Positions 35,661 to 44,061 of a DNA stretch of 44,391 nucleotides are shown here, piece after piece. The notes beneath the pieces were generated by a model. The model did not search any database. It saw only the letters and a program-made list of their open reading frames with translations, and was not told the origin of the DNA. This DNA comes from Candidatus Pacearchaeota archaeon CG10_big_fil_rev_8_21_14_0_10_32_14 (GTDB lineage Archaea; Nanobdellota; Nanobdellia; Pacearchaeales; GW2011-AR1). Every line of letters starts with the position of its first letter. Positions within the stretch are counted from its first letter, which is position 1. The DNA lies in NCBI GenBank assembly GCA_002763085.1, contig PFCY01000093.1:17697-62087 (forward strand), written 5' to 3'. The translations under genes were made by a program, and so were the position numbers.

Positions 35661-36119
35661 ATGTCAAAAGATAAGATTTATTTTGCTGGATCAATTAGAG
35701 GTGGAAGAGAAGATGTTGATTTATATCATGAACTCATTCGAAATTTACAAAATTATGGTGAAGTCCTGACTGAACATATTGGAAACAGAGAAATATCTAT
35801 TCAAGGTGAAGATGGAATATCAGATAGTTTTATTCATAATCGAGATTTAGGATGGTTAACGAAAGCAAACAGGATTGTAGCAGAAGTTACAACGGCAAGT
35901 CTTGGAGTAGGATATGAACTAGGTAGGATTGTTGAAAGAAATTTATGGATTCCTTCTAACGACAAAAAATTAATTTTATGTTTATATCGACCAAATGTAA
36001 ATAAAAGATTATCTGCAATGATAAAATGTTCTGAGGGAATATTAAGCGAAGAATATAAAACTTTAAATGATGCAAAAAATATAATAGATGAATTCATGAA
36101 AAATGGAAAAAGAGATTGA
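35661..36119 (+). CDS. 2'-deoxynucleoside 5'-phosphate N-hydrolase (DNPH1/Rcl-like, nucleoside 2-deoxyribosyltransferase superfamily)
   Basis: IYFAGSIRGGREDVDLYHELI..L..YGEVLTEHI closely matches the DNPH1 N-terminal signature. Later EVTTASLGVGYELG. Confidence 0.8.
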   Translation: MSKDKIYFAGSIRGGREDVDLYHELIRNLQNYGEVLTEHIGNREISIQGEDGISDSFIHNRDLGWLTKANRIVAEVTTASLGVGYELGRIVERNLWIPSNDKKLILCLYRPNVNKRLSAMIKCSEGILSEEYKTLNDAKNIIDEFMKNGKRD

Positions 36120-36732
36120 GAAAATAAACGCACTTGTTATTGTATCACATCCTGACGATGAAACTATTTGGATGGGAGGCACAATTTTAAATCATCCTGA
36201 TTGGAACTGGACGATAATTTCTTTATGCAGAAAAAATGACACTGATCGTGCACCTAAATTTCAGAGAGTATGTAAGGCATTAAATCATTATTCAACTCCG
36301 ATTATTTCAGATTTAGATGATGAAAATCTCCAGCCACTTTCAATTGTAGAAGTAAAAAGAAAGATTTTATATCTTACACCAAAGAAAATTTATGATGTAA
36401 TCTATACTCACGGAAAAAATGGAGAATACGGACACATACGGCATAAAGAGACTCACGATGCGGTAGTTCAATTAGTCGATGAGAAATATATTGATTGTGG
36501 TGAATTGAAATTTTTCTCTTACATAAAGAGTACGCTTCGTCCACCAGTAAATCCAGAGTTATACATTCATGTTGCTAATCCGATAGCGAACGAATATATC
36601 AAGATAAGTTCAGAAATTTTTAAAAGGAAGCAATCTTTGGTTAAAGACATGTACGGATTTGATGAAAGAGGTTTTGAAGTGATGTGTTCTGGTCAGTCTG
36701 AAGCATTTGATATTCACAATTATAAAAAATGA
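36103..36732 (+). CDS. PIG-L/LmbE-family N-acetylglucosaminyl deacetylase
   Basis: ALVIVSHPDDETIWMGGTI (HPDDE zinc motif), HGHIRHKETH. Confidence 0.85.
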   Translation: MEKEIEKINALVIVSHPDDETIWMGGTILNHPDWNWTIISLCRKNDTDRAPKFQRVCKALNHYSTPIISDLDDENLQPLSIVEVKRKILYLTPKKIYDVIYTHGKNGEYGHIRHKETHDAVVQLVDEKYIDCGELKFFSYIKSTLRPPVNPELYIHVANPIANEYIKISSEIFKRKQSLVKDMYGFDERGFEVMCSGQSEAFDIHNYKK

Positions 36733-37874
36733 AAATTTTACTTCTTTATCCTTATCCAGTAGAACTCGACGGTCAAAGTCTGCAGGGTCATTATCTAGCC
36801 AAAGGTCTAAGAGAACTTGGAGTAGAAGTAATGGAATGTGATCGCGCAGATAATTTAGAAAAACTCCACGCATACAAGTCTTTCAAACCTGATTTTGTAA
36901 TTGGAATTGGTTATTGGGGTGACACGCCTGATGTTGTTTTATCACCTCTAAAACATGGCTTGCACGCCGTACCTTGGTTTAATGCAGATGGTTGGGTAGC
37001 AAATTATCATAACACATTTAACGAACTTCCTCTAGTTGTTACAACCTCTCGTTGGGTAAAAGAAACGTACAAACGAGACGGAATGCACGCAAATAATATC
37101 GAACCTTGCTCGATCGGATATGATCCTTCAGTATTTTTCCCTATGGAAAAAAATGATCCACGAGTATTAAAAGTCAGAGAACTTTTAGGAATACAACCCA
37201 ACGAAAAAATGATTTTCACCGCCGGTGGCGACGTAACAAGTAAAGGTGCTCAAGAAATGTTTAGAGCAATTGCAAAAATTCAAGATAAAGTTCCAAATTG
37301 GAAATACGTTCTAAAAGTAAACGAAAGTTTTTCCGCAGATAATCACGGACAAGAAGAGGAGGATTTAATAGAAAGTTTAGGTCTAGATAAAAATCGGATT
37401 ACGTACCTTCGCGGAGGATATTCTCCAGAATTTATGGGAGTTTTACTTAACGCATGTGATGTCTACGCAGCACCTTCAAGACTAGAAGGATTTGGAATGA
37501 TACAGCTCGAAGCGCAAGCCAGCGGCAAACCTGTTATATCCATAAACGTCGGAGGACCTCGAGATGTGATAATTCATGAGAAAACAGGCTTCCTTGCAGA
37601 CGTTTCTTACGAAGTAAAATTAAGTAAAGAGTGGGTTTATCCATGGATGGGCTTTGAAGAAAAACACATGGTCTCATTTCCTGATCCAAAAACATTTGCT
37701 TACAGAGCAGACGTTGATCAACTTGCAGATTTCACTTTACGACTTCTTACCGACGAAGAACTTAATAAAAAAATGAGTTTAGCCGCATCGCAGCATGCAA
37801 AAGAAAACTTTCATTACAAAGTTATAGCGCAAAGGATGCTTGATTTGATAAAGAAGAATTATAATTTAATGTAA
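36729..37874 (+). CDS. Glycosyltransferase family 4
   Basis: APSRLEGFGMIQLEAQASGKPVISINVGGPRDVIIHEKTGFL. ATGA overlap with the LmbE gene. Confidence 0.85.
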   Translation: MKILLLYPYPVELDGQSLQGHYLAKGLRELGVEVMECDRADNLEKLHAYKSFKPDFVIGIGYWGDTPDVVLSPLKHGLHAVPWFNADGWVANYHNTFNELPLVVTTSRWVKETYKRDGMHANNIEPCSIGYDPSVFFPMEKNDPRVLKVRELLGIQPNEKMIFTAGGDVTSKGAQEMFRAIAKIQDKVPNWKYVLKVNESFSADNHGQEEEDLIESLGLDKNRITYLRGGYSPEFMGVLLNACDVYAAPSRLEGFGMIQLEAQASGKPVISINVGGPRDVIIHEKTGFLADVSYEVKLSKEWVYPWMGFEEKHMVSFPDPKTFAYRADVDQLADFTLRLLTDEELNKKMSLAASQHAKENFHYKVIAQRMLDLIKKNYNLM

Positions 37875-38103: not shown

Positions 38104-38610
38104 ATGGAATTTGATAAAGAAGGGAAGTTCAAAGAATTCTCAAAAATAAATGACTTATTGCTAAATGGATGTGAATTAATCCCTGAAGATAAAGGAGTTT
38201 ATATTGTAGTTAGAGAATCAAATAATAATCCTCTTTTTAATGAATCTAATCAACACTATATTAAAAAAGGAAAAAAGATTAATTTAAGTTATTCAAAAAC
38301 ACATCTTAAGGAAATTTGGAATAAATTAAACAATCACAATATAATCTATATTGGAAAAGCCAATGGAAAGGGTGGATTGAGGAAAAGGATAAAAGATTAT
38401 ATTAGGTTTGGTATGAGAACACAGGAAAAAATAGAGAAGAATGGTGTTTGTCATAGAGGTGGTAGGGCTATTTGGCAATTAGAGGATTATAGAGAACTAA
38501 AGATATACTGGAAAGAGTCAAATAACCCAAGAACAAAAGAAAAAGAATTAATAACCAACTTCAAAAAACAAAATAATGGAAACTGGCCATTTGCAAATAG
38601 GAGTGATTAA
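38104..38610 (+). CDS. GIY-YIG nuclease-domain protein
   Basis: GVYIVV (GIY), IIYIGKA (YIG), LRKRIKDY (conserved Arg), H-RGGRAIW, EKELI (Glu), PFANR (Asn), all in canonical order. Confidence 0.65.
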   Translation: MEFDKEGKFKEFSKINDLLLNGCELIPEDKGVYIVVRESNNNPLFNESNQHYIKKGKKINLSYSKTHLKEIWNKLNNHNIIYIGKANGKGGLRKRIKDYIRFGMRTQEKIEKNGVCHRGGRAIWQLEDYRELKIYWKESNNPRTKEKELITNFKKQNNGNWPFANRSD

Positions 38611-38612
38611 TA

Positions 38613-38882
38613 ATGAAAATTCATAAAGGAAGAGATTTTAAGAAAGCTGTATCAGATGCTCTGAAAAGTGGGAATTTGACTATAACTAGTTCAGATGGTG
38701 AAACCGACGAACCTGCGGTATGTGAGATTTGTGGCAAGATGATTGGAGATGTCTTGGATTCTTATGCTTATCATTGTATTAATGATGATAATTATGTTGA
38801 TGTTGAGGAAAAGTGTTTTTGTACCAGAAAGTGTTGGAATAAGTATTTGAAGAGAGAAGCAAAAGATATCGAAGCAAACTGA
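38613..38882 (+). CDS. Small zinc-ribbon-like protein, hypothetical
   Basis: 89 aa with CEIC...HC...CFCTRKC cysteine pattern. Starts 2 nt after the GIY-YIG stop. Confidence 0.45.
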   Translation: MKIHKGRDFKKAVSDALKSGNLTITSSDGETDEPAVCEICGKMIGDVLDSYAYHCINDDNYVDVEEKCFCTRKCWNKYLKREAKDIEAN

Positions 38883-38935: not shown

Positions 38936-38955
38936 TTTGTTTGGGTAGAATTTTG

Positions 38956-39966
38956 ATGAAAAACAACACACTTTATGATGTCGAGAAAATAGCCAATGCT
39001 GAAAGTATTGATGTAAAGCTAGAAGACATTAAATTAGATTCCTATAATGTTAGATTTCTTCATTTACCACAAAAACTTTCAGATAAGGAGATTGAAGAAA
39101 TCTTGTGGGATGAAAAGGATACAACTGAGTTATATAGACAAATCCTTTCTGCAGGGGGAGTATATGAAGAACCCGTATTAAATTCTGAGTTAATTGTAAT
39201 TGAAGGAAATAGAAGGATTGTCTGTTTAAGAAAACTAAAGCAAGAAGCCAATAAAGGGGGACTTCCGGGAATATCAAAAAATCATTTTGATAAGGTGAAG
39301 TGTAAGATACTTCCAAAAAATACTCCCCCACAGATAATTGACATATTCCTGGCCACAATTCATGTAAAAGGGAAGAAGCCCTGGAATGCATTTAATAAAG
39401 CAAAACATATTTTTAATCTGTATGATTCTGGTGGATTTAGCTATGATGATTTGTCTAAAAAATTAGGTATGGGTAAATCAACAGTTATAAGGGCTGTTGA
39501 AGTTTATGGCGCAACACAAAAGTATGGAGATAAATATAAGGCTGACAAGGAGTGGTTCAGAAAATTTACTTATTTTGATGAATTGTATAAAAGAAAAGAT
39601 TTGAAAGAATTCAGAAAGGAAGATAAAAATCTAGAAAGATTTGAAAATTGGGTTTTTCATAAAAAGTTAGATGATGTTAGGGAAGTTCGTCAATTAGCAA
39701 AGATATTGCAAGATGAAGATGCCTTTAAAGAATTTGAAAAAAATGACTTTGATGCAGCTATGAACCTCATAGGACTAAAAGATCCTTCTATAAATAGTGT
39801 AGAATTTAAAAAAATTAAAGACACAATAGATGTTCTAAGAAATTTTTCAAGAAAAGAATTATCAAAAACTGTTAAAGATGATTCAAGATTAAAGTTGCTG
39901 AATTCATTAAAAAAGGAGATTGATAGTTTAGTAAAAGATATTACATCAATGAAAAAAACATCATAG
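38956..39966 (+). CDS. ParB/Srx N-terminal-domain protein with a central HTH (ParB-like 1)
   Basis: LIVIEGNRRIVCLRKL (ParB box II arginine patch), HTH candidate SYDDLSKKLGMGKSTVIRAVEVY, K/E-rich helical tail. Start set at ATG 38956, 25 nt from the TATA centre; the track start at 38941 is TTG. Confidence 0.75.
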   Translation: MKNNTLYDVEKIANAESIDVKLEDIKLDSYNVRFLHLPQKLSDKEIEEILWDEKDTTELYRQILSAGGVYEEPVLNSELIVIEGNRRIVCLRKLKQEANKGGLPGISKNHFDKVKCKILPKNTPPQIIDIFLATIHVKGKKPWNAFNKAKHIFNLYDSGGFSYDDLSKKLGMGKSTVIRAVEVYGATQKYGDKYKADKEWFRKFTYFDELYKRKDLKEFRKEDKNLERFENWVFHKKLDDVREVRQLAKILQDEDAFKEFEKNDFDAAMNLIGLKDPSINSVEFKKIKDTIDVLRNFSRKELSKTVKDDSRLKLLNSLKKEIDSLVKDITSMKKTS

Positions 39967-39977
39967 TCAATATTGAC
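39966..39977. repeat. Perfect 12-bp palindrome GTCAATATTGAC at the stop codon of ParB-like 1
   Basis: Self-complementary by direct reading. Its first base (G, 39966) is the last base of the TAG stop (39964-39966). Confidence 0.9.
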
Positions 39978-39990
39978 ACCAGGAAAAACA

Positions 39991-40032
39991 TTAAGGGATT
40001 GCTTGTTATTACCAAGCAAGTTAGTCCCTTAA
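39991..40032. repeat. Compound inverted repeat TTAAGGGA-TTGCTTG / CAAGCAA-(gttag)-TCCCTTAA
   Basis: 7-bp inner stem and 8-bp outer stem with a 7-nt loop and a 5-nt bulge, read directly. TCCCTTA recurs at 40075. Confidence 0.85.
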
Positions 40033-40042
40033 TGCCTTTATT

Positions 40043-40067
40043 AAAAGTAATAACATTTATTACTTTT
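40043..40067. repeat. 11-bp perfect-stem hairpin AAAAGTAATAA-CAT-TTATTACTTTT (terminator and/or operator)
   Basis: Read directly. Followed by a T-run, and it overlaps the TATA-like CTTTTTAAAGTA upstream of ParB-like 2. Confidence 0.8.
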
Positions 40068-40113
40068 TAAAGTATCCCTTACCAATAGGGAAGAACTAAA
40101 AAATCAACACAAA

Positions 40114-41502
40114 ATGAAAAATGAAAAATTAAGTATAAAAAATATTAAAATAAAAGACTTGAAACTCTGGGATGAAAATCCTAGATTCCCTGAAGAATAT
40201 TTTAAAAAACCGGAGAAAGACTTAATTGGGTATCTATTCAAAAAAGAAAATTCACGAATGATTGATTTAGCAAAATCTATTTCAGAAAATTTTAATTTAA
40301 TTCCTTTGGAAAGATTGGTTGTTTGGAAATCCGGTAATGGGCTAATTGTTTTAGAGGGAAATAGGAGAATAGCCATTTATAAAATACTTAGTAACCTCTT
40401 TCTTCTTCCTGATAAAAAAAATATAAATTTCTTCAATGAAAAATCAAAACAATTAGCAATTAACGAAAACTTTGAAGTGGAATGTATAGTTGTAGATGAT
40501 AGAGAAGAGGGGCTAAAATATGTAGATTTGAAACATTTAGAAAAAGGATATAGTAATTGGCAAGAGTCTGAAAGAATAAATTTTCAGAAAAGAAGAGGGA
40601 TAAGTATGGGGGAAAAAGAACTAGTTAAACACGATATAAATAGGATTGTCAAAGGTTTAGATTTACCAGAAAAAATAATCGATAAAATATTAGGGCAAGG
40701 AAATTTAACAACATTTTACAGAATTATTGCAAGTACTCCAGCAAAAAAGTATTTTGGTTATGAAATAAAAGAAAATAACTTGATTATTGAAGATAAGGAT
40801 TTTGAATCAAAACTAAAGATTATCATCTGGCAAATAATCAACAAAAAAGATTTTAAGAATAATGTGATCAATTCTCGTTCATTGAATACCATCGAAGATA
40901 TTGAAAAGTATCTTAAGAATATAGACCTAAAAAGAGACTATTCTAAATTAAATGAAGATTTAAAAAATTCCGTTAAATCCAAAATTGATGTTTTTGGGAA
41001 AAAGACAGAAGAATTTGTTTTACCTATAGAAGACAATTTCAAAAAGAGTAAAAAGAGCCCCATATTAACAATTGAGGATAAACTCTTTGGTAAAACTCTT
41101 TGCTTAAAAAAGGGGAAGGTCAACAATCTTTATTGCGCAATGGATAAAATTTATGAACAAAATAAATATAACGAAAAAAATCTAGAGTTGGTTTTGCCGA
41201 TTCTAGGAATATCATTACGATTAATCTTAGATGTTGCAGCAAGGGAGTATTACTCTGAAGAAGAATTAAAAAAAGACAATACTCCCTATAGAACATTTTT
41301 AAAAGAAATTAAACAGAAATTCAGAGATGATGCAAAATATAAAAATCTTAGTACACTAACTTTATCTTGGGTTATTTCAGATACAAATTTTGAGAACATA
41401 ATAGATCATTATGCTCATGATAGTATAATCTATACACAGAATGATATATTGAAAATCTCAAAAATTATTGGAGAAATTTTGGAGTGTTTTTTTAAAATAT
41501 GA
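40114..41502 (+). CDS. ParB/Srx N-terminal-domain protein fused to a ~300-aa uncharacterised helical C-terminal region (ParB-like 2)
   Basis: LKLWDENPRF and LIVLEGNRRIAIYKIL are paralogous to the upstream ParB-like N-domain. The C-terminal region has no motif I can name (LRLILDVAAREYY, IIDHYAHDS). Confidence 0.7.
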   Translation: MKNEKLSIKNIKIKDLKLWDENPRFPEEYFKKPEKDLIGYLFKKENSRMIDLAKSISENFNLIPLERLVVWKSGNGLIVLEGNRRIAIYKILSNLFLLPDKKNINFFNEKSKQLAINENFEVECIVVDDREEGLKYVDLKHLEKGYSNWQESERINFQKRRGISMGEKELVKHDINRIVKGLDLPEKIIDKILGQGNLTTFYRIIASTPAKKYFGYEIKENNLIIEDKDFESKLKIIIWQIINKKDFKNNVINSRSLNTIEDIEKYLKNIDLKRDYSKLNEDLKNSVKSKIDVFGKKTEEFVLPIEDNFKKSKKSPILTIEDKLFGKTLCLKKGKVNNLYCAMDKIYEQNKYNEKNLELVLPILGISLRLILDVAAREYYSEEELKKDNTPYRTFLKEIKQKFRDDAKYKNLSTLTLSWVISDTNFENIIDHYAHDSIIYTQNDILKISKIIGEILECFFKI

Positions 41503-42356
41503 CATTTTATTCACCACTTAGGTACCCTGGAGGAAAGGCGAAGTTAGTTGGATACTTTAAAGACTTAATTACACAAAATGGAATTAAGGGTGGAACATAT
41601 GTAGAAATTTATGCTGGAGGAGCTTCTATTGCACTTTCTCTTTTAATAGAGGGATATGTTTCTAAGGTTATAATCAATGATAATGATAAATCTATTTATG
41701 CCTTATGGTATTCCATATTAAATCATCCTAGGAAACTTTGCAATTTAATCAAAAAAACTCCATTAACTATAGAAAATTGGCGAATTCAAAAAGAAATACA
41801 AAAAAATAAGGATAAACATGACTTATTGACATTAGGCTTTTCTACATTTTTTTTAAATAGAACAAATCGTTCCGGTATAATCAATGCAGGAGTTATTGGA
41901 GGATTAAATCAGGATGGAAAATGGAAAATGGATGCAAGGTTTAATAAGGAAAATTTGATCTCTAAAATTAAATTAATTGCTAAATATAAACATAAAATAA
42001 AGCTACACAATCTTGATGCAGTTAGATTAATAAGAAAAATTAAGAACCAATTACCTAAAAAAAGTTTGATATATCTTGACCCACCATATTACTACAAAGG
42101 AAAAGAATTATATATGAATTATTATGATTATGAAAGCCATAAAGAAATTTCAGAAGTTATAAAAAAAGTTACTAAAGTAAAATGGGTTATAACTTATGAT
42201 GATGTTGGAGAAATAAATCATTTGTATAAAGGATTTGATAACTATAGCTATCTTCTAAATTATAGTGCCGCTAATTCTGGAAAAGGAAAAGAAATAATAA
42301 TATTCTCTTCAGGAATGAATCATTCGTCAGAAGGATTGATTTTGACTCACTCCTAA
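41499..42356 (+). CDS. dam: Dam-type (D12 class) N6-adenine DNA methyltransferase
   Basis: SPLRYPGGKAKL N-terminal motif, FFLNRTNRSG, LIYLDPPYYY (DPPY catalytic motif). ATGA overlap with the upstream gene. Confidence 0.9.
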   Translation: MTFYSPLRYPGGKAKLVGYFKDLITQNGIKGGTYVEIYAGGASIALSLLIEGYVSKVIINDNDKSIYALWYSILNHPRKLCNLIKKTPLTIENWRIQKEIQKNKDKHDLLTLGFSTFFLNRTNRSGIINAGVIGGLNQDGKWKMDARFNKENLISKIKLIAKYKHKIKLHNLDAVRLIRKIKNQLPKKSLIYLDPPYYYKGKELYMNYYDYESHKEISEVIKKVTKVKWVITYDDVGEINHLYKGFDNYSYLLNYSAANSGKGKEIIIFSSGMNHSSEGLILTHS

Positions 42357-43000
42357 ACCTTCACACACCATTCACAACCCTTCTTAGGACAATCCCCTTC
42401 TAATAATCTCAAAGCTTTCTTCCAAGCATCCTCAGCCATTTTAATATTAACTTTCATCTTTACTAAACTTGTATCAAAAACAACCTCTCCTGTTTCTGTA
42501 ACTTCTTTAGGAACATAGAAAAGTAAGAAGAAGTAATCCTCTGTTTGATAACCATTTTTTCTTAATAAGAAATTATAAACATTTTGTTGTAATCTGTAAT
42601 GTTCTGCTGTGTCGTCTTTCAAAGCATGACCTCTGGTTTTGTAATCTAACACAACTAACTTTTTTCCATTTACTAAAATATTGTCAACTGCACCATGGAG
42701 TTCATTACCATTTTTATCTTTCCAACTAACACCTTTAAAGTTACTTTGCCAGATTTTCATCTTTTCTTTATCATTAAACAACTTCATACTTTCACAATGA
42801 GAATTATTACAAAGTTCAGGTGGAAGTAAATTTTTATCTCTGAATTTATCAAAATGTGTTTTTAGAATTCTATCCATTCCACTTGGAAGAGATGGAAATA
42901 TACCATTTGGTCTTTTCCAAACATTATGTTTATCTAACCAGAAACATCTTTCACATTCATTCATAAGATTTAGTGATGAGGGGGATAGTTTGAATGTCAT
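42353..43000 (-). CDS. Cas4/RecB-like PD-(D/E)xK nuclease with 4-Cys cluster ligands
   Basis: N-terminal CERCFW, GAVDNILV....LVVLDYKT (D...D-x-K), QQNVYNFLL (QxxxY), C-terminal CPKKGCEWC. Confidence 0.7.
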   Translation of the reverse strand: MTFKLSPSSLNLMNECERCFWLDKHNVWKRPNGIFPSLPSGMDRILKTHFDKFRDKNLLPPELCNNSHCESMKLFNDKEKMKIWQSNFKGVSWKDKNGNELHGAVDNILVNGKKLVVLDYKTRGHALKDDTAEHYRLQQNVYNFLLRKNGYQTEDYFFLLFYVPKEVTETGEVVFDTSLVKMKVNIKMAEDAWKKALRLLEGDCPKKGCEWCVKV

Positions 43001-43050: not shown

Positions 43051-44061
43051 ATGAAATCTGCAATTTACACTGAAGGGAATAAATTTGAAGAAACTATCTT
43101 TGAACTTGAAGAAGATTTAGAACTTAAAATTGTTGAAAATTCAAAATTGTTATTTGGGAAAAAAACGATTTATTTTGATATCAAAAATAAAATAGACACA
43201 AAATCGTTAGGTGCTACAATTCCTGATGGATTCTTATTTGATTTTAGAGATAAAGAAGCCCCAGAATTTTACCTTGTTGAAAATGAGTTAGCTAAACATG
43301 ATTTTTATAAGCACATTTTTCCCCAAATAACAAAATTCTTTGCTTTTTTCAAAAATCCAAAAAGTAGAGATAATCTCATTGAAAAACTTTTTTCCTTTAT
43401 TAAATCAAATGCTAAAATTGAAGAAGAATTTAAAAAATATCTTGGAAATAAAGAGATATATCGAACTCTTAAAGAAATAATTGAAAATAGCCAAAATATT
43501 TTAATAGTAATTGATGAAAATAAACCTGAATTTGATGAGGTTATGGAAACTTACACAGATACTTGGGACAAAATGGTAAGAATTGAAATTTTTAAAGAAT
43601 ACAAAGCAGGTAATAAAAGTATTTTTACCCTGAATCCAGACTTTGAAGATATAGGATTTATAGAACCTTCATATAAAGATGAAGTTGAAGAAAAATACAC
43701 TGAAAGTTTTCATTTAGATGGAACAGAAGAGAAAGTCAAGAGAATATATCAAAAAATAAAAGAAGAAATGTTAAAGATTAACTCTTCATTAATTTTTAAC
43801 CCCCAAAAATATTATATTTCAATTAGAGATAAGAAAAACTTTGCTTATTTTCATATTAAAAGAAAAAAGGTGAAGATTACATTAATGCTTCCTTACGAGA
43901 AAGGGGTAGAAAAAATAAAAAATCATCGTCTAAGAAAATATACTGAAGGTATAGAAAGATTTTATGGTGGCAACTCTTTTGAGATAACTATTGAAGAAGA
44001 AAAGAATTTGAGTGAAGTTATAGATTTAATTCTAGAATCATATCAAAAACAAAAAGATTGA
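43051..44061 (+). CDS. PD-(D/E)xK-like N-terminal domain protein with a DUF5655-like C-terminal domain
   Basis: IPDGFLFDF...EFYLVENELAKH resembles NucS/DUF91-type endonuclease cores. C-terminal KNFAYFHIKRKKVKITLMLP...FEITIEEEKNL resembles DUF5655. Confidence 0.5.
   Translation: MKSAIYTEGNKFEETIFELEEDLELKIVENSKLLFGKKTIYFDIKNKIDTKSLGATIPDGFLFDFRDKEAPEFYLVENELAKHDFYKHIFPQITKFFAFFKNPKSRDNLIEKLFSFIKSNAKIEEEFKKYLGNKEIYRTLKEIIENSQNILIVIDENKPEFDEVMETYTDTWDKMVRIEIFKEYKAGNKSIFTLNPDFEDIGFIEPSYKDEVEEKYTESFHLDGTEEKVKRIYQKIKEEMLKINSSLIFNPQKYYISIRDKKNFAYFHIKRKKVKITLMLPYEKGVEKIKNHRLRKYTEGIERFYGGNSFEITIEEEKNLSEVIDLILESYQKQKD

Follow-up and report, generated by a model that had tools for sequence, protein, structure and literature searches.

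The two-gene system PD-λ-5 was found by functional selection in Escherichia coli ECOR7 (RCQ13837.1 and RCQ13838.1). Vassallo et al. (2022, Nat Microbiol) validated its anti-phage activity in E. coli and gave it the annotation 'ParB/HEPN, methyltransferase'. Nine of the ten phages tested were affected, with the strongest protection against T-even phages, and cloning required an mrr-deleted host (Vassallo et al., 2022). The authors described PD-λ-5 as a compacted restriction-modification (RM) and abortive infection (Abi) system. In their HHpred analysis of the E. coli system, the matches to ParBc (96.4%) and MethyltransfD12 (99.9%) are solid, and the HEPN label is weakly based (DUF4145, 35.6%; HEPN_RiboL-PSP, 8%) (Vassallo et al., 2022). 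A later survey places PD-Lambda-5 among HEPN-containing and also among RM-related systems. Our literature search found no mechanistic study of PD-λ-5. Here we describe a pair of genes, A and B, that matches this system in a stretch of 44,391 nucleotides from contig PFCY01000093.1 of a Candidatus Pacearchaeota archaeon. The whole stretch is referred to as the window.

In the open reading frame (ORF) list, gene A occupies 40114..41502 on the + strand and encodes 462 residues. Gene B occupies 41499..42356 on the + strand and encodes 285 residues. Protein A is an exact match to the hypothetical protein COU57_06130 from a Candidatus Pacearchaeota metagenome-assembled genome (MAG). It matches 19 PD-Lambda-5_A models in PADLOC, best PDLC03998 (8.8e-32, residues 8-415), while PDLC04013 aligns over residues 8-458 (9.4e-25). 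It also matches phrog_9592 (3e-28). Protein B matches PD-Lambda-5_B over its full length (PDLC04018, 4.9e-121). The two genes lie on the same strand and overlap by four nucleotides, which is the adjacency that PADLOC specifies for PD-λ-5. Judged by sequence, everything by which PADLOC defines the system is present (A profile, B profile and same-strand adjacency), and the pair is a chromosomal, DPANN-archaeal copy of PD-λ-5, a divergent member of a catalogued system. A previous sequence-only reading of the window had drawn attention to the arrangement. It is not new, since PADLOC names the pair PD-Lambda-5 and that system is validated in E. coli. The same reading was right in seeing the logic of a defense system.

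The cassette shares with E. coli PD-λ-5 its organization as a two-gene operon, in which a ParB-N protein of ~450-500 residues with a poorly assignable helical C-terminus is followed by a D12-class adenine methylase. The C-terminal R..E and A-H motifs are also found in an enterobacterial member. However, the window cassette is located on a DPANN archaeal chromosome by a glycosylation cluster, whereas the E. coli system is located in a P2-like prophage. Protein A is only ~29% identical to the enterobacterial A over residues 11-270. Its C-terminal domain is of 'type 1', whereas the best-matching PADLOC model and many bacteria have 'type 2' (described below). Anti-phage activity, with signs of active methylation, is known only for the ECOR7 system, whereas the window copy is known from its sequence. 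The locus mainly extends the catalogued PD-λ-5 to DPANN archaea, and other archaeal copies are found in Woesearchaeota, Aenigmatarchaeota and Heimdallarchaeota MAGs.

The two genes are joined by a four-nucleotide ATGA at 41499..41502 (+; context ...AAAATATGACATTT...), which contains the TGA stop of A and the ATG start of B, as the sequence-only reading had noticed. This overlap is an operon organization. Translational coupling of A and B is probable from it. The same reading also deduced a fixed stoichiometry, which is an overstatement, as an ATGA overlap alone cannot show it.

Protein B is a D12-class N6-adenine DNA methyltransferase (PF02086, 8.5e-20). Its motif I, YAGGAS, is found at residues 38-43 (nucleotides 41610-41627) and DPPY at residues 194-197 (nucleotides 42078-42089). 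It also matches 7m6b_B (8e-15) and PADLOC MTase_II (9e-99). The description 'Dam methylase' in the sequence-only reading is correct as to the D12 class. An orthodox Dam identity was rejected, as the match to the NCBIfam dam model TIGR00571 (58.9 bits) is below the curated cut-off of 114.85. The mrr-deleted host required for cloning can be taken as an indication that the methylase is active in E. coli. Because the GATC methylation by Dam is tolerated in E. coli K-12, this requirement also suggests a non-native methylation pattern for the PD-λ-5 methylase there.

Several observations concern the methylase outside the pair. Tracing the original E. coli PD-λ-5 by DNA similarity recovered only related methylases, which are paired with OLD-like ATPases. 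In two E. coli chromosomal islands (L081, 1930-4579; L082, 1924-4636), a PD-Lambda-5_B-type methylase is located directly downstream of an OLD/AriA/PtuA-like 'ATP-dependent nuclease' of ~575 residues. The L081 copy matches PD-Lambda-5_B at 2.6e-122. No ParB-type A protein accompanies these methylases; therefore, the methylase module serves a second kind of partner. In the window, GATC is the most depleted of the 12 four-base palindromes, with 96 observed against ~169 expected from trinucleotide frequencies over the whole window (ratio 0.57). The lineage of the window may thus face, or have faced in the past, restriction directed at GATC; no link between the depletion and the specificity of gene B was found.

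Domains of the ParB-like protein

An AlphaFold2 (AF2) model of protein A was built on 62 homologues, with a mean predicted local distance difference test score (pLDDT) of 89. Conservation was scored over 62 sequences, down to ~20% identity. The protein contains three parts, all encoded on the + strand: a ParB/Srx-fold N-terminal domain (~residues 1-145, 40114..40548), a middle region (~residues 146-316, 40549..41061) and an all-helical C-terminal domain (residues 317-462, 41062..41499).

The top Foldseek matches of protein A in the PDB are ParB structures bound to cytidine diphosphate or cytidine triphosphate (CTP) (6sdk, 7bnr and 7bnk), Noc (7ol9), Spo0J (1vz0) and sulfiredoxins. These matches have a probability of ~1.0, though E is only ~1e-3 (1.5e-3). 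The N-domain contains the motifs DENPRF (residues 20-25, nucleotides 40171-40188) and EGNRR (residues 81-85, nucleotides 40354-40368). N22, R24, N83, R84, R85, H141 and W149 are invariant in the 62 sequences. The match probability and the invariant NRR box bear out the ParB/Srx-type N-domain of the sequence-only reading. Both peptides quoted there are present, LIVLEGNRRIAIYKIL at residues 77-92 (nucleotides 40342-40389) and IIDHYAHDS at residues 429-437 (nucleotides 41398-41424). The Pfam ParBc model is not significant on the sequence of A.

The arginine box of protein A reads GNRR, versus GERR in partition ParBs. The glutamate of GERR is needed for CTP hydrolysis in ParB. Because it is replaced by an invariant asparagine in A, it is reasonable to infer that the box binds a nucleotide with little hydrolysis.

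The middle region is composed of helices and two β-hairpins in the AF2 model and ends in a disordered linker (residues 309-319). Part of it superposes on the helix-turn-helix (HTH) region of ParB/Spo0J, and the ParB/Spo0J alignments span 206-295 columns, covering the N-domain and the helical/HTH region that follows. In the homologue P0118, weak HTH matches are found at the equivalent residues 145-189. The sequence-only reading had described a long helical region with no recognizable HTH. The region is helical, but the absence of an HTH is doubtful, as the ParB/Spo0J fold match runs well past the N-domain. No curated family for A exists in Pfam, NCBIfam or PHROGs; its N-terminal and middle parts match only PHROGs of unknown function.

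Protein A thus resembles the ParB/Spo0J/Noc CTPase clamps in its N-domain fold, the following HTH-like helical region, the arginine box (GNRR versus GERRxRA) and the N-terminal NPR-type motif. It differs from them in the invariant asparagine at the position of the catalytic glutamate. It has no ParA partner and is linked to a methylase instead. ParA is not found among the window neighbors, which are the methylase, a Cas4-like nuclease and a DUF5655 protein. A ParB-type C-terminal dimerization domain is also missing, and the C-domain matches no ParB structure.

The C-domain modeled alone (residues 317-462) is all-helical, with a pLDDT of 87 and a predicted template modeling score of 0.83. Its conserved motifs are GKVNNLY (residues 334-340), LPILGISLRLILDVAAREYY (residues 361-380, including R369, D373 and R377) and YAHD (residues 433-436, including H435). 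A set of polar residues is kept even in remote members: N337 and Y340 in K-V-N-x-L-Y, R369 and D/E373 in L-R-L-x-x-E/D, K400, and H435 in [KH]-[YW]-A-H. No match to the C-domain is found in Pfam, NCBIfam or PHROGs, and profile searches of PDB sequences with the full A family and with the C-domain returned nothing. An exhaustive hmmsearch with the C-domain profile over 1.84 billion representative proteins returned only 157 matches, nearly all of them the C-terminus of proteins of 410-500 residues, or fragments. A Pfam scan of the remote matches gave nothing real, and none of the 157 provides a bridge to HEPN or to another family. By these searches the C-domain is essentially confined to the architecture of protein A. 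The sequence-only reading had asked whether this region is an ordinary ParB dimerization domain or an effector fold such as HEPN or HNH/DUF1524. Pfam, PDB, Foldseek and profile searches indicate neither an ordinary ParB dimerization domain nor a recognizable domain, and no effector fold gave a significant match by fold or sequence.

The C-domain is at best a candidate HEPN domain. The HEPN-fold proteins 5yep_C and 1ylm match it in the PDB only with E values of 5-8 and a template modeling score of ~0.33. No Pfam HEPN family was found in the 115 A-family members scanned. The conserved histidine is located in [KH]-[YW]-A-H-[GD]; R369, the conserved arginine, belongs to a different helix and precedes it by 66 residues. 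ParB and HEPN domains are known to occur together, in the Saro_3948-type ParB with a Swt1-like HEPN and in MAE_28990, where the partners of the HEPN are a ParB nuclease and a DNA methylase (Anantharaman et al., 2013). Like the cassette, these systems combine ParB and a DNA methylase with a putative HEPN domain, helical in structure, in an RM-like operon. However, the A-family members scanned have no Pfam HEPN match, and the C-domain lacks the Rx4-6H motif; for Saro_3948 the comparison is by description only.

The sequence-only reading likened the protein to GmrSD and SspE. The analogy holds in general logic, as GmrSD, SspE and BrxU (DUF262 ParB-like NTPase and DUF1524 HNH) also fuse an N-domain of the ParB/Srx superfamily to a C-terminal effector. 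The likeness does not extend to the parts. No DUF262 (PF03235) or DUF1524/HNH signal is found in A or its 62 homologues, the C-domain has no HNH-like match, and SspE (7drr) matches the model of A only at E=5.2. GmrSD, SspE and BrxU are modification-dependent (Type IV) or phosphorothioate-sensing and have no cognate methylase.

Linkage to the methylase and swappable C-termini

To analyze the neighborhood of gene A, 75 loci were retrieved from GTDB species genomes by peptide patterns of A alone, drawn from 21 A sequences, so that the sample is not biased towards the methylase. The hosts are Bacteroidota, Patescibacteria, Ignavibacteria, Gammaproteobacteria, Spirochaetes, Fibrobacteria, Woesearchaeota, Aenigmatarchaeota and Heimdallarchaeota. 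A homologue of B (phmmer E of 1e-60 to 1e-100) is found downstream on the same strand in 69 of the 70 loci with enough downstream sequence, and is directly adjacent in 63. The sequence-only reading had asked whether homologues of A neighbor a methylase, and this linkage is conserved. The distance from the A stop to the B start is -20 to +17 nucleotides in 64 of the 70; 16 have an ATGA overlap and nine have TAATG. Linkage is retained by distant A members (~24% identity), and a D12 methylase is kept by P0118, by P0077 (type 3) and by the Kosakonia plasmid copy. No other neighbor in the window, including ParB-like 1 (described below), the Cas4-like nuclease and the DUF5655 gene, is conserved with A and B in the 75 loci. 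These three were rejected as parts of the system on this ground, and the unit consists of two genes.

A third gene is present in some variants. It encodes an AAA_15/AAA_21 (OLD/AbiEii-like) ATPase of ~515-530 residues and is located between A and B in four loci (L001, L041, L046 and L067) and in a distant actinobacterial branch (L083). In the latter, from Olsenella, the trio of A, ATPase and methylase adjoins a Type III RM system.

Protein B is more conserved than A (median identity 57% versus 46%). In the loci L041 and L065, the B proteins are 82% identical and the A proteins only 22%. The lineages of B do not follow the C-terminal type of A. In these comparisons B behaves as a conserved, interchangeable module, putatively for 'self-marking', and A is fast-evolving or swapped.

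The C-terminus of protein A occurs in several forms. Among 184 full-length members of the family, 102 are of type 1, the class of the window protein, 78 are of type 2 ('LFRVFLE...FHxYVH') and three are of type 3, an unassigned class. The remaining member, P0080, contains a DpnII/MboI restriction-endonuclease (REase) domain (PF18742, 1e-41). Types 1 and 2 probably diverged from a common ancestor; hhalign aligns them over 138 columns (probability 76%, E=2e-5) and brings their N, R/E and H motifs into register. In the enterobacterial PD-λ-5A on the Kosakonia plasmid (PADLOC 7e-174), these signatures appear as VVCRTFLEN and GANAHAG; an hhalign comparison of the C-domain profile with this single sequence was not significant. 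Because a DpnII/MboI REase occupies the C-terminal slot in P0080, the comparison suggests that this slot holds the effector.

Possible mechanism and alternatives

The analysis shows how the two genes are arranged, their family membership by profile, the ParB fold of A, the conservation of the linkage and the modularity of the C-termini. We consider it likely that the pair is an RM-like anti-phage cassette of the PD-λ-5 type, in which B marks self DNA and A is the sensor and effector. The self-marking role, the signal sensed by A and the choice of effector domain are our inferences. Protein B would methylate host DNA at some motif, and the resulting N6-methyladenine (m6A) would mark it as self. 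The N-domain of A, with its GNRR box, probably acts as a switch by binding a nucleotide, and may also be a nicking nuclease. The ParB-like helical middle region would bind DNA. The C-terminal helical module with its N-Y-R-(E/D)-H constellation most likely carries the toxic or nuclease activity. Protein A would engage DNA that lacks the mark of B, that of the invader, and then damage it. Alternatively, a HEPN-like C-domain could cleave RNA, leading to aborted infection. Since the start of B is coupled to the stop of A, any cell translating A would also make the protective methylase. The GNRR box, the N/Y/R/(E/D)/H set, the swappable C-terminal modules, the optional AAA_15 ATPase gene and the freely re-paired methylase provide handles that can be tested.

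The cassette can be compared to Type II RM systems with D12 (alpha-class) methylases. Both join a methylase to a partner that is presumed to carry out restriction. Protein B matches MTase_II, and P0080, a relative of A, contains the DpnII/MboI REase domain. The window A, in contrast, has no recognizable REase fold, A and B do not co-diverge, and PD-λ-5 is effective against T-even phages.

Several points weigh against an RM-like cassette with A as sensor and effector. PD-λ-5 protects best against T-even phages, which have hypermodified DNA (Vassallo et al., 2022), and this is unusual for simple cleavage of unmethylated DNA. The identities of A (N-terminal plus middle part) and B are uncorrelated over 63 pairs (r=0.05, Mantel p~0.25), unlike those expected of R and M genes that are obliged to share a changing specificity. 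Foldseek of the isolated C-domain gave no significant match, the best being E=3 in the PDB and 0.9 in BFVD. The canonical HEPN motif Rx4-6H is absent from the C-domain, which has no arginine followed by a histidine four to six residues later. The effector role of the C-domain is argued from conservation and from the single REase homologue P0080, whose contig ends before the downstream gene. The match of the window A to the PADLOC models (~1e-32) is far weaker than that of the enterobacterial protein (7e-174). An activity of A, in the archaeal copy or in any other A protein, is a prediction.

A more specific version of the RM-like reading is possible, though on balance unlikely. Protein A of PD-λ-5 would be a nucleotide-gated ParB-like clamp that loads on DNA, reads whether the m6A mark of its partner is present or absent and then fires an unclassified nuclease-like helical domain. 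If true, it would introduce a new effector fold and a new coupling of a ParB switch to restriction, in a system common to bacteria, DPANN and Asgard archaea.

The effector could instead be the ParB/Srx N-domain, as a DNA-nicking nuclease or a nucleotide-degrading NTPase, with the C-domain acting only as a sensor, an oligomerization or a methylase-docking module. Nicking and NTPase activities are documented in the literature for members of the ParB/Srx superfamily, the only strictly invariant residues of the A family are in the N-domain, and no nuclease fold is detectable in the C-domain. However, a genuine REase domain occupies the C-terminal slot in P0080, conserved polar residues are kept in the C-domain, and the weak HEPN-type HHpred matches of Vassallo et al. 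(2022) fall exactly on its two conserved helices (DUF4145, 35.6%). Considering both sides, we regard an N-domain effector as distinctly unlikely.

It is quite improbable that protein A is a clamp or controller serving the methylase, by loading it, targeting it or regulating its transcription in a nucleotide-gated manner, so that the cassette would be an epigenetic or regulated-methylation module. The likeness of its N-terminal and middle parts to CTP-dependent ParB/Noc clamps, the HTH region included, agrees with such a role, which is the idea in the sequence-only reading that methylation is targeted under CTP/NTP control. The nested inverted repeats upstream of A could be an operator, and B is much more conserved than A and freely re-paired. 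The idea is disfavored by the validated anti-phage phenotype of PD-λ-5 and by the three-gene variants with an OLD/AbiEii-like AAA_15 ATPase, which is typical of defense systems. In addition, a restriction-nuclease domain replaces the C-terminus in one relative, and the conserved R/E/H constellation looks catalytic, not structural.

An ordinary partition or maintenance ParB beside a functionally unconnected orphan Dam-like methylase would agree with the ParB-like fold and with orphan D12 methylases being common. The linkage data effectively refute it, as the genes are paired in 69 of 70 loci from bacteria and archaea and overlap or abut. Further points against it are the absence of ParA and of a recognizable ParB C-terminal dimerization domain, GNRR in place of GERR, and the matches of both genes to PD-Lambda-5 profiles.

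Genomic surroundings

The rest of the window is cellular, including an STT3/AglB oligosaccharyltransferase, rhamnose synthesis genes, glycosyltransferases, a flippase and a Na+/H+ exchanger, and the cassette is for this reason assigned to the chromosome of a DPANN archaeon. The guanine-cytosine content of the cassette is slightly lower (27-30% versus ~31-33%).

An intergenic spacer of 147 base pairs is located upstream of A (39967..40113). It contains nested inverted repeats, with 15-nucleotide arms at 39984-39998/40025-40039, 10-nucleotide arms at 39999-40008/40010-40019 and perfect 11-nucleotide arms at 40043-40053/40057-40067. These repeats may terminate the upstream gene, serve the cassette as a promoter or operator, or both. 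No enrichment of bacterial-type terminators or promoters was found upstream of A in a scan that does not cover archaeal promoters.

Upstream of the spacer is a trio of ORFs (38104..38610, 38613..38882 and 38941..39966, all +). It consists of a 168-residue ORF with a weak DUF123/GIY-YIG-like match, an 89-residue zinc-finger ORF and a second ParB-like protein, 'ParB-like 1' (341 residues). ParB-like 1 matches the PADLOC candidate PDC-M38A (6e-20) and phrog_3694, and gp98 of the P2-like phage Wphi matches both as well. The only part that ParB-like 1 has in common with protein A is the LIVxEGNRRI box (E=0.011). The trio also precedes A and B on a second contig (L087) and may be a separate candidate defense module.

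Downstream, B converges with the gene of a Cas4-like PD-(D/E)XK nuclease (42353-43000, -; PF12705, 1e-08), and the two overlap by four nucleotides at the B stop. The nuclease gene is followed by a DUF5655 gene (43051-44061, +) that matches the PADLOC candidate PDC-S18 (3e-13). With these two genes, the end of the window looks like a small defense island. Just upstream of the defense genes, 35661-37874 contains a gene of the nucleoside 2-deoxyribosyltransferase family (PF05014), a PIG-L deacetylase and a glycosyltransferase that also matches 'GT4-conflict' (PF20706, 1e-07). These three genes may be part of the glycosylation cluster or of a conflict system.

Distant ParB-domain proteins are also found in P2-like phage hotspots, in Escherichia phage Wphi (L076) and Pseudomonas phage vB_PaeM-D14A (L077). 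In both, the ParB-domain gene precedes a second gene and a cytosine-C5 methylase in convergent orientation. The layout appears to parallel the pairing of ParB and methylase in the cassette, with another methylase class.

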